NCBI RefSeq assembly: GCF_006345805.1
Contig: NC_042997.1
Span: forward strand, 177,692,001-177,756,000
Origin: Octopus sinensis
Taxonomy: Eukaryota
DNA: 64,000 nt
Direction of reading: 5' to 3'
In this document: positions 20,369-63,734 of the stretch, in pieces
Layout of the letters: each line of letters starts with the position of its first letter
Position numbering within the stretch: the stretch's first letter is position 1
Program-made: the position numbers and the translations under genes
The notes under the pieces: model-generated
Databases searched by the model: none
Seen by the model: only the letters and a program-made list of their open reading frames with translations
Told to the model about the DNA's origin: nothing

Positions 20369-20599
20369 TATTTCTTTATTACCCACAAGGGGCTAAACCC
20401 AGAGGGGACAAACAAGGACAGACATAGGTATTAAGTCGATTACATCGACCCCAGTGTGTAACTGGTACTATATTTATCGACCCCGAAAGGATGAAAGGCA
20501 AAGTCGACCTCGGCGGAATTTGAACTCACAACGTAACGCAGACGGAATACCGCTAAGCATTTCGCCCGGCGTGCTAACGTTTCTGCCAGCTCGACGCCT
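20369..20599 (-). mobile_element. SINE family A, tailless subtype, ~16-bp TSD
   Basis: Full-length; tttatttgtcgacacc on both sides. Confidence 0.9.
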
Positions 20600-21253
20600 T
20601 TTATTTGTCGACACCGTAAAGGTGGACAGTAAAGTTGCCTGCGGCGAGATTTGATATCAGGGCGCAGAAAGCCAAAACAAATACCACAATGCAATCTGTT
20701 TGGCGTCCTAACGATTTTTGTCAGTTCGCCATTTTTATTTTTTTATTTTTCGGGGTAAAATATACATGAAACAGTTTTGCGTGTTGGACACTATCTATTA
20801 ACCCGATTGACATCAATAAAGGGGAAGAACATAGCAGGGGTTGTTACATTCGTAGCTTCTCCGAGGGATTTGTTCCATTCAGTTGGTCTATTTTATATTC
20901 ATTTGATAAAATAAATTCTCGTGAAATCAAAGGAAAATTTCAAAATCTCTTTAAGCCCTTGTCAACTGATTGGTTTTTCATATTACAACGACCACCAGAC
21001 ACCACTTCCTCCCATATAATCTAGAAATATTCAAAAATGGAGACAAAACAAATAAAACATTGATTTTAACCTTCAACAATGACAGCGGGCTTACCTTTCT
21101 CTCAGCCTTTAATCGATCTATCTCTGTAAGTCTCTCTCTGACTGTCGATCTCTCTCTCTCTCTCTCTCCCTTTCTCTTTTTGTATAAATCTTTACCGTTA
21201 TTTGTATATCTGCATATCTATCAATTTATCTAATTCTCTCTCTCCCTACCTCT

Positions 21254-31443: not shown

Positions 31444-33751
31444 TATTTCTTTATTACCCACAAGGGGCTAAACATAGAGGGAACAAACAAGGACAGACAT
31501 AGGTATTAAGTCGATTACATCGACCCCAGTGCGTAACTGGTACTTAATTTATCGACCCCGAAAGGATGAAAGGCAAAGTCGACCTCGGTGGAATTTGAAC
31601 TCAGAACGTAACGGCAGACGAAATACGGCTACGCATTTCGCCCGGCGTACTAACGTTTCTGCCAGCTCGATAACATACGACTGTGATGAAGAGTAGCCGG
31701 AATAAACTTCTATGAATAACATAATCTTCAAGAATGAGGAGGAAATTAGGAGCAGCAAACCAGCCAAACGGTAGAGTAACAGCAGCAATTTCCTTCTCTG
31801 TTTTCAACGACAACGCTTTCTCATCTATTCCAGTCGTAAGGAGGGCGACAGGGACAAAAATAAGAACAGTAGCAGCAACAACGACAACGATTACTTTTTG
31901 TTTTTACCTTGAGCACAAGCCCAGTAAATTTGAGGAAAGAAGGAAGTCGATTACACCGAGCCCTGTGCTCCACAGGTACTTATTTCATCGACCATGAAAG
32001 AACGAAGGACAAAGTCAACCTGATGGTGTTTGAACTCAGAGTGTTAAGAGCCGGAAGAAATTCTGCTAAGTATTTTGTCCGTCGTACTAACGATTCTTAT
32101 TTCTTTACTGCCCACAAGAGAAAGGACAAACAAAGACCGACAAACGGATTAAGTCGATTATATCGTGGTACTTATTTAATCGACCCCGAAAGGATGAAAG
32201 GCAAATTCGACCTCGGCGGAATTTGAACTCAGAACGTAAGGGCAGACGAAATACCTATTTCTTTACTACCCACAAGGGGCTAAACACAGAGGGAACAAAC
32301 AAGGACAGACAAACGGATTAAGTCGATTATATCGACCCAGTGCGTAACTGGTACGTATTTAATCGACCCCGGAGGGATGAAAGGCAAAGTCGACCTCGGC
32401 AGAATTTGAACTCAGAACCTAACGGCAGACGAAATACCGCGAAGCATTTCGCCCGGCGTGCTAACGTTTCTGCCAGCTCGCCGCCTTTTCGATAATAAAA
32501 CTTTCTACTATAGGCACCACGCATGAAATTCTGGGGAGTAGGATAGTCGATTACATAGATCCCAGGATTCAAGTGTTACTTATTTTATTCACGACAAAAG
32601 TGTGAAAGACAACGCCGACCTCGGCAGAATTTGAACTCAGAGCATGAAGGAGGACGAATTACTATTAAGCATTTCACCCAGCGTGCTAACGATTCTGCCA
32701 GCTCGCCGCCTTCTTTTCGACAATAATAATGGTTTCAAATTTTACCACAACGGCCGCAATTTTGAGGGAGGGTGATGAGTCGATTACATCGACCTCAGTG
32801 TTAAACTGGTACTTACTTTATAGACCCCGAAAGGATGAAAGACAAAGTCGATCTCGGCGAAATTTGAACTCAGAACGAAGCAGCAGACGAAATACCACTA
32901 AGCATTTCGTCCAGCGCTTCCTCTACAGTAATTGGCATTATTGCCTCAAACAGCAATACAACATCAACAACAGTCGCAGCAAGGTGGCTGCTGGGTCTAG
33001 CTAGTTCGCAAGTGTGATAAAACGAACAGAATGGTCGAAGTTCCAAAAAGAAGAACTGAGGGAGAAATCTAGGGTGCCGTTCGAAATCAAGAAAGAAAAA
33101 GTCACCTTGATCGTTCTAAAGCAGATTTTGGAAAATTCTGGGAGATGTGGAATGAGAAAATTTCCTTACTCCTAGGATGGTGTTCGTCATATTCTCTCTG
33201 AGTATAAGGTACTTTACCTATTTCTTTACTACCCACAAGGGGGCTAAACACAGAGAAGACAAACAAGGACAGACAGACACACGGATTAAGTCGATTATAT
33301 CGACCTCGGTGCGTAACTGGTACTTAATTTATCGACCCAAAAGGATGAAAGGCAAAGTCAACCTCGGCGGAATTTGAACTCAGAACGTAACGGCAGACGA
33401 AATACGGCTGCACATTTCGCCCGGCGTGCTAACGTTTCTGTCAACTCGACGCCTTCTCTGAGAATAAAGTACTTTACCACCCCAGTCAATAATGAAGAAC
33501 TCGTCTTCATCCCACAATATATATTTCATTACTACCCACAAGGGGCTAAACACAGACGGGACAAACAAGGACAGACAAACGGATTAAGTCGATTACATCG
33601 ACCCCAGTGAACTGGTACTTAATTTATCGACCTCGAAAGGATGAAAGGCAAAGTCGACCTCGGCGGAATTTGAACTCAGAACGTAGCGGCAGACAAAATA
33701 CCGCTAAGCATTTCGCCCGGCGTGCTAACGTTTCTGCCAGCTCGCCGTCTT
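31444..33751 (-). mobile_element. Cluster of about eight co-oriented SINE family A copies
   Basis: Copies at about 31444, 31910, 32098, 32256, 32500, 32730, 33219 and 33522, all on the minus strand. Confidence 0.9.
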
Positions 33752-35284
33752 CTCTGAGTATCAGGTACTTTACCACCCCAGTCAATAATGAAGAACTCGT
33801 CTTCATCCCACAATATATTTTCTTTCACTCCTACGAGCTTGACAAATTGAACACCAGTCAGATACTGGAGCCGATATAATTTATTATAATTCCTTGTAGT
33901 TTCGGGAATGTACAGGAAATCATTGTTGTTGTTTTTACAGTAACATAGTCTACATTATTGCTACTTGTGTATCTTTCCTTCAGACTTTAAAAAGCTTTTT
34001 AATTTTATCTCATTTTATTTATTAATTTAGAGAATATAACGGGCAACAGAAATTACAAGGTTTCATGTTTTTTTTTTTTTTCTTTTCATATTTTTCTTTT
34101 TCTTGTCTTTTTCTCTCTTTCTTTATTTTTTTAAAGCAATATTTTCAATAATATTCTTCAAAGTAAGACCGAAAGAAAAAAAAATGAATTTTAAAAAAAT
34201 CTTTGAAACAATGAAAACAAAACAAAGAATAATAAACAACAAATGCATCTTCAGAAAAGAATATTTCATTGTTTTTGTTGTTATTTAATTCAGAGCCAAA
34301 TTCGCTATCGGTTTTGCGATTACGATCAATTTTCAAAGATAGATTAGTTTCTCAGCAAATATTCGACCAGTTCAATAAGTTCATTTCATCAATGTTAACA
34401 TTTTTTTTTGTTTTATTATTTATTTATTGTGATTTTTCAAAAGATAAATTGAATTTTTTTAAACATTGTTTCGATGACTGAAGGAAAAAAAACAAAAAAA
34501 AACAACAACAACAAATACAAAAATCCAAAGGAATCCGGTGCGTTCCTGATAGAAAATATTTTCTGGAGGAGCGTTTGTTTAAACTATTATACCAATTCGT
34601 TTAAACTATGTTTAATAACAATGGATTCATCTTTCATTTAGTCATTCATTCATTCCATTCTTTTCATGTAATTCATTACCACAAACGCATTAAAAATTTT
34701 CATTCCACCTCTTATCCGGTTGTTCTCCGCGAAGTTCAAGGCAAATTCATAATATTGCTTTTGACGTTGCTTATGATTTTTTTTTCATTCCATTTCCATA
34801 TCCGGCATTCTTAGACAATTTATTTTCAGATGTTAACAGTAATATTCTTCAAATAAATGATGTACTAGAATCAAATCTAGAGAACACTGGACGCTATAAT
34901 AAAACGCCCACAAAATCCTGATAGAACAGTTTTTTTCTTAAATCTCTCTTACTCAATTATTTCACTGTTCTTATTGTGTAGGCATAGGAAAGTTGTGTTG
35001 GTAAAGATTCAAAAGAGGAGTGAAAGAATAGATACCTTTCGTATACCATTCGAGAAATCACAGGTTCTGGAATTGTTGTCCTGATAAACGACATATCCTT
35101 ACCAGACTGGCATGTAATTGCTAATGTTATTGTTATTATTATTATTATTGTTGTTGTTGTTGTTGTTGTTGTATTTAGGAATGGTCATTTTGCCAGTTTA
35201 GCCAATAAAAACACACGCACTATATATTTGGTGTTACTTTGCTTCAGCGTTATTTATTTTTTACATTAATCTTAATCTTATTTC

Positions 35285-38299: not shown

Positions 38300-39475
38300 T
38301 ACGTAGAAGGTTGAAAAGGAACACACGAGTTGATATATATGGAAAAATAAGTCAAGGTAGAAAATGCTAAAATAATTTTATAAAAAACATTTCAGTAGCG
38401 GTTTCAGTCATTGAGACTTTTTCAACTGTAAATATGGAGAACAATTAAATTTTGGAAAAATTAAAAGAAAAGTTTTTTTTAAAGAATATTTGCATAGTAT
38501 TCAAATACAAGGGGTATTTTCCTTGTTTCTGCCTGTCTCTGTCTCTCTTGTTTACTTTTGTGGGTTCGGGGTCGTTGTGAATTCTTGGCAGGGAAGAAGA
38601 AGAAGAAGAAGAAGAAGAAGAAGAAGAGAAGAAGAAGAAGAAGAAGAAGAAGAAGAAGAAGAAGAAGAAAAGAAGAAGAAGAAGAAGAATGTGGGAGTTC
38701 CATGATAGTAGTAGGATGTTGAATGATCGAGTGCCCTGAAAGTGACTTGCAGATGGTAGTAGTGATTGAATTCTTGAGACATCTCTTTTAAATATATTGT
38801 TTATAAAATTTGCGTAGGTGTTATTCTAAACAGCAATAGCAGTATAGTTAGGAAGGAGGTGGCAGAGAGGAAGAAGACGAAGAAGGAAAAAAAGGAAGAA
38901 TAAGAAGGGAATGTAGGTGGTATGATAGTTGTAAGATGTTAAATGGTCAAGTGACCTAAAAGTGTCTCGTTATGGATTATAGCAGTGATTGGGACTGTTA
39001 TTTAATGAAATCTTGGGAATCTCTTGAGTGTATCATTTTTAATATTTGCGTGTGTGTTTGTGTTATTCTAAGGCCGTGATAGATATGTCGTTTGCTGTAG
39101 ATGCGTTCAAAAGGGGTCTGTATTTTGTAATAAAGAGAGTCTCTTTATTAATTTGTTGGCAGCAGGTTGTATCGTGCCTGAATTGGTAGAGGGGAAAAAT
39201 TCTGAAGCTTGGATTTTTGTTATTGGCGCAAATGTCGATGTGTGTGTTGGCTGAATGCTATTTTTTCTGTTTTGGGGAATTTTGATCTGGGATCTGTGCA
39301 GAGCCATCCTTTTACGCAGACTGTTTTTTGTTTGGCCTATGTATTGCTCTTGACACCCAGAGCAGGTTAGTGCGAATATCAGTTTCTCCGAAGCACATGT
39401 GAAGCTGCTTTTCACTGTGAAACGTTGTCCCTGTTTGAAGGAAAACTCTGATCCCTCAATTAAATTGATGCATAT
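38300..39475 (-). mobile_element. 5'-truncated Penelope-like retroelement (GIY-YIG C-terminus, 3' UTR, hammerhead)
   Basis: FTCASEKLIFALTCSGCQEQYIGQTKNSLRKRMALHRSQI, then after a frameshift HIDICANNKNPSFRIFPLYQF...KETLFITKYRPLLN; hammerhead on the same strand at 38389-38433; ends at (TA)n. Confidence 0.88.
38389..38433 (-). ncRNA. Minimal hammerhead ribozyme, U3-A8 core variant, slightly decayed
   Basis: Reverse complement atttacag-TTGAAAA-agtc(tcaat)gact-GAAA-ccgc-TA-ctg.aaat. Confidence 0.65.
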
Positions 39476-39574
39476 CAAGAGCAATACTGGTTCCCCGATC
39501 TTAAAGTGTAGTGTGGGTGTGTAATGATGGAGCGGCTGGTGCGCTGTTGATGCTAGCTGGTGCGGTGGTCTTCC

Positions 39575-44697: not shown

Positions 44698-45008
44698 CGC
44701 GCGCGCGTGTATGTATGTATGTATGTGTATATATATATATATAATATATATATATGTGTGTGTGTGTATATATATATATAATAGAAATATTAAAATTACT
44801 AAGTCTCTCTAAAGGAGATTTACGGCAGCGTTACTGGATATTAATAGTTATCGCCATACGAATATGGCAGTCTATAAATAAGACTAAAGCAGTCGCTGAT
44901 TAGCTCCAAGAGGCCATCGCCTCTAGCTAGCTATATGACACACGAACCTGCGTCCATTACAACCTTCGAACAGGGGAGGTCAGCCGCTTCAGCTTGCTAG
45001 TCAGACAT

Positions 45009-45049
45009 CTGCAGACATGTTTCAGGGATGTTGCCCTTTATCAATGCAG
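45009..45049 (-). ncRNA. Hammerhead ribozyme, U3-A8 core variant
   Basis: Reverse complement ctgca-TTGATAA-aggg(caacat)ccct-GAAA-catg-TC-tgcag. Confidence 0.78.
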
Positions 45050-45325
45050 CGTAGTCAGAACCAGCAGGTGTCGCTACTGACCGTCTGTTCGAAGATTTTA
45101 TTTACCTAGTTACAGTGGAATACATCCACTTGTTTTCAATAATAGAAATATTAAAATTACTAAGTCTCTCTAAAGGAGATTACGGCAGCGTTACTGGATA
45201 TTAATAGTTATCGCCATACTAATATGGCAGTCTATAAATAAGACTAAAGCAGTCGCTGATTAGCTCCAAGAGGCCATCGCCTCTAGCTAGCTATATGACA
45301 CACGAACCTGCTGGTTCTGACTACG

Positions 45326-45366
45326 CTGCATTGATAAAGGGCAACAACCCTGAAACATGTCTGCAG
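45326..45366 (+). ncRNA. Hammerhead ribozyme, U3-A8 core variant
   Basis: ctgca-TTGATAA-aggg(caacaa)ccct-GAAA-catg-TC-tgcag. Confidence 0.78.
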
Positions 45367-45530
45367 ATGTCTGACTAGCAAGGTGAAGCGGCTGACCTCC
45401 CTTGTTCGAAGGTTGTAATGGACGCAGGTTCGTGTGTCATATAGCTAGCTAGAGGCGATGGCCTCTTGGAGCTAATCAGCGACAGCTTTAGTCTTATTTA
45501 TAGACTGCCATATTAGTATGTCGATAACTA

Positions 45531-45944: not shown

Positions 45945-46265
45945 AGCCGGGCGAAATGATTATACGTATTTCGTCTGTCTACATTCTGAGATCAAATTCC
46001 GCCGAGATCGACTTTGCTTTACATCCTGTGGGCAATAAAGAAAATAAATATTTTACTAACTTAAGGTGGCAGAATCGTTAGCACGCAATATAAAACGCTA
46101 AGCGGGATTTCGTTCGTCTTCTCCTTCTAAGTTCAAATTCCGCCGAGGCCAACTTAATTTTTTCAGGGTCGATAAAATATGTACCAGTTGAGCACTGGGT
46201 TCGATGTAATCGACTTAACCTCTTCCCCAAAAATTGCTGGCCTTGTGCCAAAATTTGAAACCAAT
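45945..46265 (+). mobile_element. SINE family A fragments
   Basis: ccgggcgaaatg...gatcgactttgc and aaggtggcagaatcgttagc...gccaaaatttgaaacc. Confidence 0.75.
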
Positions 46266-46410
46266 ATGATACTAATCCTATCATTTACTCATCGCTTGAT
46301 TATTTCTAATTACATTCTTAATGCGCCAAACTGTGTTCACTTCACTGAATATTTTAGTTCTAACTTACATATATTTCGTTTTTGGATTTTGTTTGCAAGA
46401 TTCTTTAATT

Positions 46411-46686
46411 GAGTTCGTGTGTTGAAGCATATTCTGTTGTGTCTGGGGAGAGTCATTTTCTTTTTGTGCCTTATAATGTAACACACTCAACGGTAAAATT
46501 TCCACTTATTTCTTATTTTTATTTTCCTAAAATTTTCGTTGCGTCTTGCAACCTTTTCTATAGTCTTGACTCTGTCCGTTATTTACACTGCGTTCCTTTT
46601 TGTTTGTTTGTGCGCATGTGTGTGGGTCAGTGTGTATGTATGTGCTTATGCATGCATGCATGTACATATGTATGTGTGTATGTATG

Positions 46687-46737
<51 letters not shown>

Positions 46738-46951
46738 GCATCTGTATGTATGTGTCCTGTATATTCATGCGCACAAACAAACAAAAAGGAACGCAGTGTA
46801 AATAACGGACAGTGTCAAGACTACTGAAAGGTTGCAAGATACAACGAAAATTTTAGGAAAATAAAAATAAGAAATAAGTGGAAATTTTGCCGGTGAGTGT
46901 GTTACATTATAAGGCACAAAAAGAAAATGACTCTCCCCAGACACAACAGAA
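46411..46951. mobile_element. Foldback element (~190-bp arms around a (TG)n spacer)
   Basis: attctgttgtgtctggggagagtc...gtgcgcatg versus catgcgcac...gactctccccagacacaacagaat. Confidence 0.85.
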
Positions 46952-47643
46952 TTACATATAACAACTGACACGAAATCCCTAATTCGATAACTTATTGCCA
47001 ATAGCCCATCTATGTACTATGTTCTTTGTCTGTAATAATTTCTGCTCTTTTAATCAGCCATTGCTTGTGAACTACCTGCTCCCGAATTAAATCGACCCAC
47101 TTCCTCCATCATTACTCCGAGTCAATGAGCCACTGTGGTCGCTCGACTGACATGAAACTGCAATCAATCTCCCTTAAACCATTCAATAACGTAGTCCTAC
47201 ATGTACCTTAAAAGATTTGGGTGGTCTTAGCTGGAATACTTTTGATTATTTGTCAGCAGCGAACTACCTGCACCTGAATGAAATCGATGCATCATCTCAC
47301 TTCCCACATCATCACTCGGAATCAACAAGTCAGTCTGTTGTCGCTTGTCCCTTGCTATAAACTATAGCCTAAATCTTTACACTACTAACTTAAGAAAGGA
47401 AAGACATTTAACAACGTAGTCCTACATGCACTCCTGAATGCCTTTGATCGTAAGCCTGCTCGTCTAGGGATGACCTGGGGTTAAACAACAATCAGAACAT
47501 TATCTTTCAGGCATTATATTTCCAGGCGGTGAACTAAACATTTTTCTCGGTTGCTCCCCTCTATAGCAGCAATCCTCTCTAGAACAACTTTCCTTCTTCT
47601 AAAAAAAAATATCAGTAAAAGTTCCAGAGGAAAATCATCTGCA

Positions 47644-47911
47644 GTGTCTGGGAAGAGTCATTTTCTTTTTGTGCCTTATAATGTAACATACTCACCGGTA
47701 AAATTTCCACTTATTTCTTATTTTTATTTTCTTAAAATTTTCGTTGCGTCTTGCAACCTTTTCAATAGCCTTGAGTCAAGACTACTGAAAAGGTTGCAAG
47801 ACGCAACGAAAATTTTAGGAAAATAAAAAAAAGAAATAAGTGGAAATTTTAAGGCACAAAAAGAAAATGACTCTCCTCAGACACAACAGAATATGCTTCA
47901 ACACACGAACT
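47644..47911. mobile_element. Second foldback copy of the same family, without a spacer
   Basis: Folds at ccttgagtcaag; ends acacgaactc, the reverse complement of the 46411 terminus. Confidence 0.85.
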
Positions 47912-48675
47912 CATATAAATAATCTTGCAAACCAAATGGAAAGACGAAATATCATCTGCAGTGTTCTAATCAATCTCTCAGGTTGTGATATGCAAATGTC
48001 TACAGGAACTGCATCGCTTTTTTCGTACCATATAATTGCTTCTAACACAGACTCTTGTACTTTATTTTATCGACCATAAGGGGATTAAAAGACAAAGCTG
48101 ACCTCAATGGAAACTGAACTCAGAGCATAAAAAGCCGAAATAAATACCGCAAGGCATTTTATCTGACGCCCTGACGATTCTGACATTCCACCGTCGGAAG
48201 CGGTAAAGCGTACGATAAAGGAAATGAATGACGTTTATCAAACAAATAGGAATATAGTTAACCAACAGTTGATTTCTCGCTTCTGTACACACGACATAAA
48301 CTTTTTATAGAGGCTTCTTTAGACTGGGATAAAAATTAAAAACAAAAAACTGAAGCCTGTCTCAAGTTGACAGGGATAAGCTCCGATTACACCGGAGCTT
48401 ATTCTAGTTCCTGTCGCATTTAAGCAACTGTCAGCACAAGACTTCTTTCAGATAATGATGCTAGTTCGTCGCGAAGATAATCTGTCTTTTTAGTTGAGTG
48501 AACTGCAGCAATGTAAAATAAGTTCCTTGCACAAGGACACAGCGTGCTGCCGAGCCCATAAAACAGGATTTTGTGACATTCATAACTTACCGAATGACAT
48601 TCAGCAGTTTCTATTATCACCTAAAATCGAAACTGGATTTTTCTTTGATTTAATTAATCACCTTTTTAATTATAA

Positions 48676-49063: not shown

Positions 49064-50064
49064 TTAGTAAACAATAGTATTGTTTATTACATGCTTCCAG
49101 GTGATTACTGCTTTTCTGGCGGTCAGATTGACAGGAGTACCTATAATTCGCAGCTGAGCAAATATCGCAGGGGAACTTCGCTCACGAAGCACTGGTTTTT
49201 CGGTTTTCTCACCGATGTTTACATCGTTCGCTGATATATGCATGTGTGTCTCCACATCACTCGGGCTAGAGATGATAAAAGAATATACGACAGACTTCCG
49301 CACGATTTCCATCTCGTAAGGCATTAATCAACTCGAGAAAATGGCAGTCGTTTGTTTCGAAGGTACTGTGTAATAAAATAAAAACCCTGTAATAACTTGG
49401 TTACCACCCGAACTTCTTAGCCACGCGGCTATACCGCTTAGTCTTCTACGCTCTGCTCATTATGGTTTAATAGCGCTGAACTTAATGCTTTTGAAGAGCA
49501 TCTTGGGATAAAATAAAAGCATAAACAAATAGCAATTAAAATAATCATTCCGACTCCATTAATGACGCTAACACCAAGGAAGACATTTTAGATTTAGAAT
49601 TAGAATAGATAATGACCTCACGCACATTTTCAGATAACTGATTGCGGAAAAGGAGACAGTTTAAATACTAACCACACAACTCACTATTTCCCATTCTCTC
49701 TATCTATCTCTCTTTCTCTCTCTCTCTCTCACTCACTCTCTCTCTTTCTCTCTCTCTCTTCCTCTTTCTCTCTCTCCCTCTCTTTCTCTCCTTCCCTATC
49801 AAAACTAATCCACGTATTCCTCTATTTTCTATAAGCTTTCCTCAATCCAACAACTAAAATCCACGAAGAAGTGGTTATATTTCGAACATTTGTTTGATAA
49901 AATCTTTATTCTTTTTCAAATTTTGTTTTCAGCAACAGTGTGTTTTTTTATTCTCGTTTTTTTTTTGTTGTTATTATTGTTACTATCAGTTATTATTTAT
50001 TTGTTTTCATTTTCCAATGTGTGTGTGTGTGGTTTGTGGTTTTATTATTATTATCGTTAATAAC

Positions 50065-50729
50065 AAGGCGGCGAGCGGGCAGAATTTTTACTGCGCCATA
50101 CAAAATGCTTAGCGCTATTTCTTCCGACCGACCTTACGCCAAGGTCGACTTTGCCGTTCATTCTTTCGGAGTCGATAAAATAAGTACCAGATAAACACTA
50201 GGGTCGATGTAACCGACTTGCCCCTCCCATATTCCTGGCCTCGTGCCAGAATTGGAAACAGTTATTATTATTGTTGTTGCTGTTATTCTTGTTGTTGATC
50301 ATCTCTGGAACTAAGGCAGCGAGCTTGCAGAAATGTTAGCACGCCGGGCGTATTTCGTCTGCCGTTACGTTCTGAGTTCAAATCCCGCCGAGGTCGACTT
50401 TGCCTTTCATCTTTTCGAGCTCGATAAATTAAGTACCAGATACGCACTGGCGGTCGATATAATCGACTTAATCCGTCTGTCTGTCCTTGTTTGTCTCCTT
50501 TGTGTTTAGCCCCTTGTGCGTAGTAAAGAAATAGTTATTTCTTCCGACCTTACGCCAAGGTCGACTTTGCCGTTCATTCTTTTGGGGTCGATAAAATAAG
50601 TACCAGATAAACATTAGGGTCGATGTAACCGACTTGCCTCTCCCCATATTCCTGGCCTCGTGCAAGAATTGAAAACAATTATTATTATTGTTGTTGCTGT
50701 TATTCTTGTTGTTGATTATCTCCGGAACT
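50065..50729 (+). mobile_element. Old SINE A plus a tailless SINE A (50313-50533) flanked by a ~196-bp duplication
   Basis: 50114-50312 repeated at 50534-50729. Confidence 0.88.
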
Positions 50730-51175
50730 GGATGTGTTTCGGAAAATCCGTGTGTTTGTGCCTTTTTTTTTTCTTTTTAGAAGTCTTTTTTTGTTGATTT
50801 TATAGTTGATCAGAACCATAAGTAGCTGATCGACTATTTTTGTTACTTGCCCTACGGAGCAAAATTTTAGAAGGAAATTTTTGAAACATGAAAGAATTTT
50901 CAAAATGGCGTCGTCTTCGTCGTCCACTCAGCAAGAGAGGAAGTTGGGCGAAGGTTTTGAAAGGTTAAACTATCTTTTGCATTCATTTTCTACTATACAA
51001 TACTACAGATGTAGTAGTAACTAAAAACGTATTATTTGCGTTGTATCAGTAGCAACAATAACAACAACATCGACTATAAGAGGTAGCAACAAGAAAAAAG
51101 ATATGTTAAACAAAATTTAAGAAAAGTAGTAAAAAAGAGTTGGAGTACAAGTAATAACGTAAGAAAGAGAAAAAT

Positions 51176-55450: not shown

Positions 55451-56277
55451 GGTGATGGCGGCAGCGGTGGCAACAGCGACAGTGGAGTGGCGGTAGCGGC
55501 GACAGCGGAGCGGTGGAAGCGGCGACAGTGGAGCGGCGGCAGAGGGATATTTTGCTATTATTTCTAACCGGTGGGTTGATGTATCTTCATATTTGCAAGA
55601 GCCAATATATTAGTGTTTATGCTTTTGTGTGTATGTGTATGTGTGTATGTGTATGTGTATGTGTGTGTGTGTATGTGTATGTGTGTGTGTGTATGTGTAT
55701 TGTCTATGTTTGCAAGCATGTGTATTTGTTTGTATGTGTGCTTGTGGTCTTTCTACGTTAGTTATGTGCTTGTTAGTGTACGTATTTATGTGTTTGCTTG
55801 TGTTTCTGTGCGTATATGTGTGTGTTATCTATGTGTGCACGTATGTCTGTGCATATGTTTGTCTGTGTGCGTGTGTATTTATATGTGTACGCATGTGTGT
55901 GTGTGTGCGCGCCGTATGCGTCTTTATCATATGTGTATGTTGTGTATATGCGCCATGTGTGTGTATATGTGTTTGTCTATGTTTGTATGTGTACGTGCGA
56001 GTGTATGTGGGTTGGTCAAATGTTTGCGCATGTGTGTGTGTGTGTGTGTGCGTGCGTGTTTGCATGTATGAGTGTTTGTGTTTGTATGCGCATGCGTGTG
56101 TATATATCAATTTATGAATGATTGTACATGGATGACCCCATGCGAACGTGCCTAAGTGCCGAGGTGAATCAAAGTAACATTGCATTTAATTACGAGTATC
56201 TATGCGATTTACTGATTCGAGTGTGTATGCGTACATGTATACATGTGTGTGCATGTGTAGCTGTGTATCTGTTTCCG

Positions 56278-58233
56278 TATATGCATATATATATTTGTGA
56301 GTCTGTGTGTGTGTGAGAAAGGGTTTGCATTTGAACAAATACGTCCACATTTTGGGGATATACTTACGTAGGTATATGCATATATATTTGTGAGTCTGTG
56401 TGTGTGTGAGAAAGGGTTTGCATTTGAACAAATACGTCCACATTTTGGGGATATACATACGTAGGTATATGCATATATATTTGTGAGTCTGTGTGTGAGT
56501 GAGAAAGGGTTTGCATTTGAACAAATACGTCCACATTTTGGGGATATACTTACGTAGGTATATGCATATATATTTGTGAGTCTGTGTGTGAGTGAGAAAG
56601 GGTTTGCATTTGAACAAATACGTCCACATTTTGGGGATATACATACGTAGGTATATGCATATATATTTGTGAGTCTGTGTGTGAGTGAGAAAGGGTTTGC
56701 ATTTGAACAAATACGTCCACATTTTGGGGATATACTTACGTAGGTATATGCATATATATTTGTGAGTCTGTGTGTGAGTGAGAAAGGGTTTGCATTTGAA
56801 CAAATACGTCCACATTTTGGGGATATACTTACGTAGGTATATGCATATATATTTGTGAGTCTGTGTGTGAGTGAGAAAGGGTTTGCATTTGAACAAATAC
56901 GTCCACATTTTGGGGATATACTACGTAGGTATATGCATATATATTGTGAGTCTGTGTGTGAGTGAGAGAAAGGGTTTGCATTTGAACAAATACGTCCACA
57001 TTTTGGGGATATACATACGTAGGTATATGCATATATATTTGTGAGTCTGTGTGTGTGTGAGAAAGGGTTTGCATTTGAACAAATACGTCCACATTTTGGG
57101 GATATACATACGTAGGTATATGCATAATATTTGTGAGTCTGTGTGTGTGAGTGAGAAAGGTTTGCATTTGAACAAATACGTCCACATTTTGGGGATATAC
57201 ATACGTAGGTATATGCATATATATTTGTGAGTCTGTGTGTGTGAGTGAGAAAGGGTTTGCATTTGAACAAATACGTCCACATTTTGGGGATATACTTACG
57301 TAGGTATATGCATATATATTTGTGAGTCTGTGTGTGAGTGAGAAAGGGTTGCATTTGAACAAATACGTCCACATTTTGGGGATATACTTACGTAGGTATA
57401 TGCATATATATTTGTGAGTCTGGTGTGAGTGAGAAAGGGTTTGCATTTGAACAAATACGTCCACATTTTGGGGATATACTTATGTAGGTATATGCATAAT
57501 ATTTGTGAGTCTGTGTGTGAGTGAGAAAGGGTTTGCATTTGAACAAATACGTCCACATTTTGGGGATTATACTTACGTAGGTATATGCATATATATTTGT
57601 GAGTCTGTGTGTGAGTGAGAAAGGGTTTGCATTTGAACAAATACGTCCACATTTTGGGGATATACTTACGTAGGTATATGCATATATATTTGTGAGTCTG
57701 TGTGTGTGTGAGAAAGGGTCTGCATTTGAACAAATACGTCCACATTTTGGGGATATACTTACGTAGGTATATGCATATATATCTGTGAGTCTGTGTGTGA
57801 GTGAGAAAGGGTTTGCATTTGAACAAATACGTCCACATTTTGGGGATATACTTACGTAGGTATATGCATATATATTTGTGAGTCTGTGTGTGTGTGAGAA
57901 AGGGTTTGCATTTGAACAAATACGTCCACATTTTGGGGATATACTTACGTAGGTATATGCATATATATCTGTGAGTCTGTGTGTGAGTGAGAAAGGGTTT
58001 GCATTTGAACAAATACGTCCACATTTTGGGGATATACTTACGTAGGTATATGCATATATATTTGTGAGTCTGTGTGTGTGTGTGAGAAAGGGTTTGCATT
58101 TGAACAAATACGTCCACATTTTGGGGGATATACTACGTAGGTATATGCATATATATCTGTGAGTCTGTGTGTGAGTGAGAAAGGATTTGCATTTGAACAA
58201 ATACGTCCACATTTGGGGGATATACTTACGTAG
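56278..58233. repeat. 93-bp minisatellite, about 21 copies
   Basis: gagaaagggtttgcatttgaac at 56315 and 56408; 31-aa period in the ORF track. Confidence 0.97.
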
Positions 58234-58669
58234 ATATATTTACGTGTACTTTTATGAGCGCATGCGCTTTGCTTAATAGAACTGCGGAATACGACAGAGA
58301 AACAAATGTACTATTAATAATATGTATATGCATATCATGTCCATGCATACATATAGATATTTGCCTCTAGCATTAGTAAATTAACAGCCTTTCGCTTAAT
58401 GTCTCCTGATAAAGATATTTGATATGCATCAAGATACGATGCTAATTTAAAATTATAATTGTCTTCAGTATATTTTAGCGCCTCGGATGTAAAATAAATT
58501 AACTATATAACCGTTAGTCTGTTTTAATAGAGACATTGATTCGCCTAATTAGAAATTTTGCTTTTTCGCATATAAACAGTACAAAATGCTTCAATTTATT
58601 TTAATTGTTTCGTTCATTTTTCTCTTTACAATTGCGTTATGAAATAATAATTCTACATACTCAATTAAC

Positions 58670-59495
58670 CTTTTTATTTGTTTCAGTAATTAGGCTGCGG
58701 CTATACTGGAGCACCGCCTTGCAGAATTTTCTTTTTTACTCGAATGCTTATTTTATCGATCTCTTTGCCGGACCGCTAAGTTACGGAGACGTAAGCACAG
58801 CGACACCGTCTGTCACACACACACACATATACACATATAAATCTACACAACGGGCTTCTTTCAGTTTTTGTCTACAAAATCTACACACAATGCTTTGGTC
58901 AGCCCGGGGCTATAGTAGAAGCTACTTGCCCAAGGCGGTGAGCTGGCAGAAACGTTAGCACGCCGGGCGAAATGCTTAGCAGTATTTCGTCTGTCTTTAC
59001 GTTCTGAGTTCAAATTCCGCCGAAGTCGACTTTGCCTTTCATCCTTTCGGGGTCGATAAATTAAGTACCAGATACGCACTGGGGTCAATATAATCGACTT
59101 AATCCGTTTGTCTGTCCTTGTTTGTCCCCTCTATTTTTAGCCCCTTGTGGGCAATAAAGAAATAAGTGCCACACGGTGGGACTGAAGCCAGAACCATGTA
59201 GTTGAGAAACAAACTTATAACCTATTTCTTTACTATCCACAAGGGGCTAAACACAGAGAGGACAAACAAGGACAGACAAACGGATTAAGTCGATTATATC
59301 GACCCCAGTGCGTAACTGGTACTTATTTAATCGACCCCGAAAGGATAAAAGGCAAAGTCGACCTCGGCGGAATTTGAACTCAGAACGTAACGGCAGACAA
59401 AATACGATTACGCATTTCACCTAGCGTGCTAACGATTCTGCCAGCTCACCGCCTTTTGAGAAACAAACTTATTACCACTCAGCCAATCGTGCGCC
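58670..59495. mobile_element. SINE C (minus strand) interrupted by two tailless SINE A copies (58932-59164 +, 59223-59455 -)
   Basis: SINE C resumes after each insert; ttgagaaacaaacttat duplicated around the second insert. Confidence 0.88.
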
Positions 59496-59670
59496 CATAA
59501 TAATTCGTTGAATTACAACTAAGTGCACAGGCCAATAGTTACTACAGATGATTTACACCGATTTTCTTTTCCACGGTTGATGTATGCTAAATTATTGTCA
59601 AAATAAACATTCAGTTGATATATCTCGGGTGATATAACATTCAGATTTATAGACGGTGAATCGACAAGTT

Positions 59671-62526: not shown

Positions 62527-63734
62527 TAGGTTGTCCGGAGTTCTGAGCGCTTTTAATATGCAAAAAGGGATATAAATAATTGACCATTCAGTAAATTTTA
62601 TTCAATGAAATAACTTCCATTATTATTAATGATCTTTGCTCATCTATCAGGCAATTTGAATATTCTATCAGCATAAAATCTGACTGGTTTTAAAGAAAAA
62701 AGTTGTCTAGATGCATTTTGATTCCATCTAGATTGTTGGTAGCAGGATGGCGCAATATCAGGAGAATAAGATGTTAGGGGTGAGAGATCCCAGCCAAGTT
62801 CATGTAACTTTGTTTGGGTAGCCAAAGATACATGTGGTCGGGCATTGTCTTGTTGGGACACTACCCCTTTCCTGATGGCAATATCCGGCCTCAGTTCTTT
62901 GATTTTTTTTTTGTTCAAATTAGCCAACTGACAACAGTACACAACAGAGTTAATGGTCTGGTTTTGTGGGAGAAGCTCATAATAAATAATGCCTTTATGA
63001 TCCCACCAAACACAAAGCATAGCTTTTTTGGCATGAATATTCGGCTTTGGTTGCTGTTTTGGGGGATCCTTACACAAACTCCAGGATCATTTTCACACTA
63101 TGTTTTCATACACAATCCATTTTTCATCTGCAGTTACAATTTGTTTCAAAAAAGGCATGATTTTATTCCGTTTCAAAAACATATCATAAATGGAATACCA
63201 GTTCAAGCAATTATTTTCTGAGAATCTGTGTGGAACCCATATATTATAGCGAGAAATGTATTTTAGCGCCACTGGGTGTTCATGAGCCATACTTTTAGAA
63301 ACTTCCAACTCCTCTGCAAGTTCTGTAGTCATGACATTTGAGTTTTCTTAGATTTTTTTACCTTCAAACCATCTTCATCCAGTTTTGAAGGTCTTCCACT
63401 GCGGCTGTCATCTTCCAAACTAAACTCTCCAGCTTTTAATTTTGCAAACTACTTTCAAACAGTTGATTCACCTACAGCATCACCATAAACTTCACAAATG
63501 TTTTTGCAAGTTTTTGTAGCATTTTCTCCTTGTTTCAAAAAAGAAAAGTATTACAATGTGAGTATGAAATGTTTGACTATCCATTTCAAATGTCAATAAA
63601 GGGTGACCAGAATGAAAGATAAATCTATTTTTAGTCAGGAACAAAAAGAAGAGATGCACCGCCACTTCAAGCAACGCCAAAGAAGCGTTAAAAGATTTAG
63701 CTTGAAAACGCTCGGAACTTTCCGGACAACCTAA
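62526..63734 (-). mobile_element. Mariner DNA transposon with both TIRs and a disabled transposase (ATG ~63584)
   Basis: TIRs ctaggttgtccggag.ttctgagcg / cgctcggaactttccggacaacctaa flanked by TA; motifs RSGRP, WVPH, IVTADEKW, MLCVWWD, QDNARPH, YSPDIAP; stops, frameshifts and a 3' deletion. Confidence 0.95.

Follow-up and report, generated by a model that had tools for sequence, protein, structure and literature searches.

A tailless octopus SINE lies between two copies of a ~198-bp sequence that probably form a long target-site duplication

Introduction

How does a short interspersed element come to lie exactly between two ~200-bp copies of the same sequence? The question is raised by positions 50114–50729 of a 64,000-nucleotide stretch of the Octopus sinensis genome (GCF_006345805.1, contig NC_042997.1, forward-strand positions 177,692,001–177,756,000), referred to here as the window. 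A preliminary description, made from the letters alone, attributed the repeat to an insertion that duplicated its host target. We asked whether the repeat is a true target-site duplication (TSD) and whether duplications of this length are routine or occasional for the SINE concerned. Taking the occasional and routine versions together, we conclude that the repeat is probably a true TSD.

Results

SINE A and its relatives

The window is AT-rich, microsatellite-laden animal DNA and contains dozens of fragments of one SINE superfamily, which have their head and core in common. An older subtype, B, ends in ATT-type tails, while a younger subtype, A, carries a different 70-base tail with no repeat beyond it. 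SINE A is 233 bp long. The elements are short, high-copy, non-coding and interspersed, with a shared head and core and a variable tail, as expected of SINEs, and between 90,000 and 158,000 contigs per sample run match the window stretch. The head folds into two hairpins (z −2.65) and contains A- and B-box-like motifs, recognised by eye against the box consensus; ARAGORN returned 0 tRNA genes in the window, and an Rfam search of it gave no matches, to tRNA or otherwise. Comparison of SINE sequence patterns with metagenome, viral and genome contig collections gave 0 matches. Consensus sequences of the named octopus SINEs OK, OR1 and OR2 (CORE-SINE) were not found in the searched supplements of PMC13282606 and PMC4824008 (one PMC4824008 file excepted), and the SINE A family may already be described or named in subscription papers, in Repbase or in a PMC4824008 supplement.

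SINEs pile up on the minus strand at 31444–33817, where at least eight same-strand units are inserted in each other's heads and tails; the pile-up includes a B copy with a 14-bp TSD, the right copy of which overlaps the next head. At 58827–59500, two SINE A copies lie in opposite orientation, 58 bp apart, both within one copy of a third repeat family. An A-type copy at 45946–46045 has an internal deletion, keeping head remnants and the last 17 tail bases, and was excluded from the TSD counts.

A 198-bp repeat abuts both ends of one SINE A copy

The focal insertion lies in an older SINE, and its parts were delimited by alignment, all on the plus strand. Positions 1–49 of a SINE B head remain unduplicated at 50065–50113 and align to the head of the SINE A copy at 58932 as well as to other B copies. 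The left duplication copy follows (50114–50312, 199 bp) and consists of the rest of this SINE B with a private core deletion (50114–50259, ~146 bases), an ATT/GTT microsatellite tail of ~40 bases (~50260–50298) and at most 15 bases of unique DNA. SINE A itself occupies 50313–50533; it is tailless, with full 5′ and 3′ ends and a 13-base internal deletion, and 12 of its 220 bases depart from the majority of nine copies. The right duplication copy (50534–50729, 196 bp) starts at SINE-head position 50.

Global alignment of the two copies gave 185 identical bases out of 195 aligned (~95%), with 10 mismatches, one 4-base gap and one 1-base gap. The last base of the left copy is the base preceding the SINE A start, and the right copy begins directly after 50533; the element is thus adjoined on either side by the direct repeats, as in a TSD. 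The alignment and the two exact junctions thus bear out the initial observation of a SINE A copy exactly between two ~196-bp copies. These had also been said to include non-SINE flank, and some is indeed present, but it is small next to the older SINE and tail that make up the rest. As a chance control, an anchored flanking repeat of at least 15 bases was scored at 1500 random pseudo-insertions in the window. Such a repeat accompanied 44 of them: 27 were simple repeats, and the other 17 comprised 13 in a 93-bp satellite, three at the nested locus at 33.2–33.8 kb and one, 15 bases long, in an AT-repeat tract at position 1493. An origin of the extra DNA by 3′ transduction was rejected, as this DNA is the immediate upstream flank.

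With about three quarters of the repeat being SINE sequence, and many SINE copies in the window, the older SINE might have inserted twice independently, or the arrangement might be an assembly artefact. We consider either barely credible. The SINE-derived parts of the left and right copies are identical at 132 of 139 aligned bases (95%), whereas the same parts match seven other B copies at only 70–82%, and both focal copies have the private core deletion of ~14–17 bases; therefore, one locus was copied. The compound tail and unique bases are also the same in both copies (53 of 56 tail and flank bases identical). Transitions account for nine of the 10 substitutions, in keeping with mutations that followed the duplication rather than with sequencing error. 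Three stretches are matched by contigs from other samples: the left junction (run X19, 50179–50337, two other letters and no gap, with only 25 letters on the SINE side), the right copy (X20, 50584–50669, one other letter) and the passage from the left flank to the left copy (X20, 49800–50166). This excludes an assembly error.

The 3′ junction is fixed and prefers a short motif

SINE A had been called tailless, and all nine recognisable 3′ ends do stop at the same terminal A, without poly(A) or a repeat tail. That the 3′ junction is thereby fixed at a single base had been missed. Next to this end, six of nine copies show G[G/T]T, at a background of 0.026 (P = 2e-8, for a motif picked post hoc); scored simply as a start with G, the count is again 6/9 (P = 0.002). 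Most 3′ junctions read pyrimidine|G[G/T]T, frequently in SINE heads, and six of nine in this one window lie inside SINE-like repeats (20369, 32098, 32256, 50313, 58932 and 59223). The motif is present in the left (target) copies of four of the six TSDs displayed. The focal left copy reads GCT, one transition away from G[G/T]T, and in a different copy of the family targeted by 58932 the corresponding site has GTG after a G. No symmetric motif was seen by eye at the 5′ junctions. The motif may go back to the endonuclease, or to pairing that involves a short read-through at the 3′ end of the RNA, and these junctions do not distinguish the two.

Head position 50 serves as a junction in two cases, namely the start of the focal duplication and a dimer on the minus strand. 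Here a full SINE A (32256–32487) is joined by its 3′ end to position 50 of a second A copy, which runs from that position to its end (32098–32255) and is joined in turn to position 17 of another SINE head, the first 16 bases of that head coming from the dimer's head. The dimer units, absent from the list in the preliminary description, have no visible TSD. From this we infer that SINE heads were hit twice in succession, the 5′ end being joined by homology each time. An A 3′ end joined to head position 50 recurs in at least 10 contigs of run X19 and at least 16 of X20, with 0 among the matches listed in X8 and X9; the depth ratio of A tail to core, a rough measure based on depth sums, is 0.40 in X19, 0.39 in X20, 0.08 in X8 and 0.07 in X9.

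Such dimers, which both the window and runs X19 and X20 contain, open a two-step route to the focal locus. A SINE dimer (a full unit plus one from position 50) would first have inserted with an ordinary TSD of ~20 bp, and template switching or gene conversion would then have replaced the second half of the dimer with sequence from the older SINE upstream. A dimer's second half is ~83% alike to the older SINE core, and the last 22 bases of the duplicated piece begin with GTT, although GTT is ubiquitous in this tail and makes the 22-base fit trivial. The right copy, however, resembles the older SINE from its ninth base, which limits the anchor to 8 bases or fewer; a second A tail has left no remnant, and two events are needed. 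Overwriting of a dimer is quite improbable.

Flanking repeats of SINE A vary from none to 198 bp

The flanking-repeat lengths first given for the other SINE A copies (~0, 7, 16, 21, 24 and 66 bp) were reproduced by re-measurement as 0–2, 5–7, 15–16, 21, 24 and 66–67 bp, and with the focal locus they span 0 to 198 bp. The shortest show a 5′ overlap with the SINE head. They belong to 58932–59164 (plus strand, 0–2 bp, with a 4-base overlap), which sits inside a third-family repeat copy, and to 31444–31669 (minus strand, 5–7 bp, starting with GTT), which is 5′-truncated by 7 bases and overlaps into its truncated head. Directly joined copies have TSDs of 16, 21 and 24 bp that start with GGT, all on the minus strand: 20369–20600 (15–16 bp), inside a decayed SINE core; 59223–59455 (21 bp), in the A-box-like head of the third-family copy hit by 58932; and 33219–33455 (24 bp).

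The second-longest repeat, of 66–67 bp (33752–33817 and 33456–33521), flanks the minus-strand copy at 33522–33751, which has one common 5′ junction with its neighbour at 33219. Tandem duplication of a unit of 66 bp plus SINE is disfavoured as the origin of this array at 33.2–33.8 kb. The two copies are 8.7% apart, like random SINE A pairs; they have 0 derived states in common and opposite subfamily states at the linked positions 7, 45, 50 and 160, which argues for independent insertions. A rate test did not reject a tandem origin (3/66 versus 20/229, p = 0.43), and a tree of eight SINE A copies was unresolved (0/5 branches starred). The 33522 copy is without the G[G/T]T motif, and its 3′ junction lies where the target imitates the final 9 bases of the SINE. 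Both junctions show microhomology, and the 5′ one shares its base with the head of the neighbour, a pattern suggestive of annealing on either side. The 66-bp case therefore supports the occurrence of long duplications beside SINE A, but they may have arisen there by a route other than that of the focal locus.

Two of the seven classifiable SINE A copies thus exceed 50 bp (95% CI 4–71%, from one window chosen for its outlier), and none of 12 older-type copies has a non-repetitive flanking repeat of more than 19 bases, as judged from rough coordinates and older copies. Two further candidates for long TSDs, a 174-bp repeat at 44778/45139 and a 140-bp repeat at 46433/47638, were rejected as fold-back elements. 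The counts bear on the possibility that long offsets are routine for the mobilising enzyme, with a loosely placed second-strand cut and a sizeable share of duplications above 50 bp. The SINE A counts and the spread of lengths favour it, as do the zero among older-type copies and the precedent of Dualen-4b (PMC9977147). Set against these are the small, outlier-chosen sample with its wide interval, the clustering of directly joined copies at 16, 21 and 24 bp, the motif-free 66-bp case with microhomology on both sides, and the finding that host factors alter the long-TSD frequency of one and the same LINE (PMC4245944). A routine product of the enzyme is possible but doubtful. The initial statement that this SINE "routinely" duplicates host DNA is accordingly not established by two copies out of seven, given that interval, the choice of window and the perhaps separate route of the 66-bp case.

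The duplication is as diverged as the short TSDs of the family

The focal pair differs at 10 of 195 positions (5.1%, CI 2.5–9.2%) and the pooled shorter SINE A TSDs at 6 of 134 (Fisher p = 1.0), the latter being biased low because short TSDs are found only if well kept. Both copies of the duplication thus appear as old as the insertion, as they would in a TSD. The focal SINE A is 5.5% from the local majority, and if all of this arose after insertion, ~11% would be expected between the focal copies rather than the 5.1% seen; differences in the source gene are needed as an explanation. Organism C, ~6% diverged, has orthologous flanks at 49965–50114 and 50749–51166, with 26 other letters over 50749–51166. 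This right flank is slightly more diverged than the focal pair, and the insertion may therefore postdate that split. In organism C the A-type tail is about five times rarer in relation to the core, and the dimer joint was absent from the matches listed. The order of events at the locus is inferred, no empty allele having been seen and no contig of five sample runs (X19, X20, X3, X8 and X9) bridging the locus.

The similar age also bears on a reversed order, in which slippage or repair first duplicated a 198-bp piece in tandem, and a blunt insertion later placed the SINE at a junction that offered its preferred motif. The sequence at such a junction would be T|G[C/T]T, a microsatellite is contained in the piece, and blunt or near-blunt insertion exists (58932). 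The piece would, however, have to start by chance at precisely head position 50, the hot spot of the SINE itself. Its end and start have no microhomology, its age matches that of the TSDs of the SINE A family, and no other non-repeat tandem duplication of this size occurs among the window's local direct repeats. We regard prior duplication as improbable.

About 175 bp downstream of the duplication, a possible first coding exon lies at 50905–50964 (plus strand), with an ATG in CAAAATGGCG context and 20 codons followed by GT. Organism C shows few differences across it. If this exon is real, the SINE and the duplication lie in or near a promoter.

A single insertion with a long offset as the preferred reading

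We favour a single target-primed insertion at a motif within an older SINE head, in which ~198 bp is a minority outcome beside a mode of 16–24 bp, and we give this reading about even weight. A partner LINE, likely of Tx1 type, would nick at the motif (head position 50 of the B copy), and reverse transcription would proceed from a fixed point in the SINE tail. The 5′ end would be resolved separately. Direct joining 16–24 bp downstream would be the mode, trimming with microhomology would yield TSDs of 0–7 bp, and annealing to an existing SINE head would yield dimers and the 66-bp case. Occasionally, as at the focal locus, direct joining would take place far downstream, at ~198 bp, and fill-in of the long stagger would copy the intervening DNA and so create the duplication. 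The long offset would then be a minority outcome of 5′-end resolution, probably with host repair involved, and not the standard product of the family.

Three observations speak for this reading: both junctions are exact to the ends of the element, the 3′ junction motif recurs in six of nine copies with the focal start at the head position used by the dimer, and the long pair is as diverged as the short TSDs. Others weigh against it, namely the GCT of the focal left copy, the lack of an observed empty allele, the ~11% between copies predicted from the divergence of the SINE, the lack of a partner LINE in the window and the fact that, with two of seven copies above 50 bp, a minority outcome is not separable from a routine one. 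The SINE A tail matches only SINE copies in the window and no LINE with such a tail, and no reverse-transcriptase domain was detected in the 122 window frames scanned, 115 of them hand-picked from a list of 412. The part of the initial account that took the repeat for duplicated host target is thus supported by the motif, the reused head position and the divergence, but its "loosely placed second-strand nick" is inseparable from joining of the 5′ end by host repair.

Other repeats and domains in the window

Several further elements were recorded. A ~360-bp unit forms tandem and inverted copies at 44778–45530 (a 174-bp direct repeat at 98.9%, then a fold-back); it is young, and its layout is presumably that of a Penelope-like terminal repeat. 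A GIY-YIG-like frame at 39107–39574 (minus strand; Pfam PF01541, E = 3e-4, just under the cut-off) is probably a Penelope endonuclease fragment, and a fragment of a Mariner transposase is encoded at 62640–63086 (minus strand; PF01359, E = 1e-24). A palindromic MITE-like element with ~280-bp arms is present twice, at 46409–46952 and 47638–47925, and the satellite at 56277–58239 consists of 21 copies of 93-bp units with 96% matches. Pfam matches to Spt4 and Serpulina_VSP in window frames were weak and below the cut-off, and were dropped.

Discussion

A single 198-bp case is a curiosity, while frequent occurrence would matter. On a wider reading, which we think rather unlikely, the 3′ junction of SINE A would be the only fixed one, placed at a short motif that is found again in the head of the SINE, and the 5′ junction would be free over hundreds of bases. 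The 5′ end would snap to the nearest SINE head, making dimers hidden long duplications, or else be joined directly, perhaps at a nucleosome-spaced ~200 bp, and duplications above 50 bp would accordingly accompany at least 10% of insertions. If so, a single SINE would rank among the main sources of small tandem duplications in octopus genomes, and of SINE arrays that it builds itself, and long SINE duplications would have been missed so far because TSD scans stop at 30–49 bp. Published surveys covered 10–49 bp (PMC6007223 and PMC13295347) and 5–30 bp (PMC2912911, for L1 and Alu), as given in the sections of these papers used here, and a long tail is invisible to them beyond their limits of 49 and 30 bp. 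The share of SINEs in the Octopus vulgaris assembly is reported as 11.6% (PMC13282606). [quoted passage not shown]

Comparison with known systems draws on excerpts of the papers cited, including general background (PMC8967140, PMC4758252, PMC4824008, PMC2887409, PMC3636483 and PMC7943196). The literature searched held no account of a target motif or of TSD lengths for any octopus SINE, subscription papers and Repbase being outside its scope. Among RTE elements, RTE-1 of C. elegans reportedly has ~200-bp flanking repeats, and if so the focal duplication is of similar length; the literature searched, which did not extend to the RTE-1 papers themselves, held no confirmation of it. SINE A differs from RTE-type SINEs in its junction signature (PMC6007223). 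According to that source, TSDs of the RTE clade are mostly 7–15 bp, and RTE-related SINEs end in microsatellite-like repeats and have TSDs starting with T. None of nine SINE A ends has 3′ microsatellite-like repeats, only one of seven TSDs lies in or touches the 7–15-bp range on each side (5–7 and 15–16 bp), and the starts are mostly G.

Long TSDs are already known for R9, Dualen and L1. In Chlamydomonas reinhardtii, Dualen-4b_cRei duplicated more than 50 bp in over half of the observed new insertions, with a median of 900 bp (PMC9977147). Like SINE A, it shows variable-length duplications of more than 50 bp at both ends of a non-LTR insertion that are read as TSDs. Unlike this autonomous LINE with two endonucleases, SINE A is a 233-bp non-coding element with a 16–24 bp mode and two long cases in seven. 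R9 of bdelloid rotifers has a 126-bp TSD (as cited in PMC9977147). It resembles SINE A in a site-directed first cut with the second-strand position far downstream, but R9 is an rDNA-specific LINE of one fixed length, whereas the lengths of SINE A vary and its motif is short.

Human L1 in cultured cells offers a closer parallel in the form of the distribution, which combines a short peak with a tail of long TSDs, and in joins that are made directly or by annealing (PMC4245944, PMC2912911, PMC1291365). L1 TSDs reach several hundred bases (PMC1291365), TSD-length peaks are specific to the LINE, 5′ ends are joined either directly or through annealing, and long L1 TSDs depend on the host cell line (PMC4245944). 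Unlike L1 with its poly(A) tail, TT|AAAA target and 13–15 bp peak in cell lines, SINE A is a tailless germ-line SINE with G[G/T]T junctions.

Tx1 families with specific targets mobilise SINEs, which land in other repeats and form tandem copies (PMC4494074), and L1-Tx1 families were recently active in Octopus vulgaris (PMC13282606). SINE A resembles the crocodilian SINEU, mobilised by Tx1-Mar, in preferring fixed sites inside an abundant repeat and in building tandem copies (PMC4494074). It differs in that SINEU has snRNA heads, poly(A) tails, a Mariner target and TSDs of ~10–16 bp, while the targets of SINE A include its own head; long TSDs are not described for SINEU in the passages of PMC4494074 drawn on here. 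Membership in either group is unproven, but by analogy the focal case appears to resemble both the known long-TSD elements and the target-preferring passengers of Tx1.
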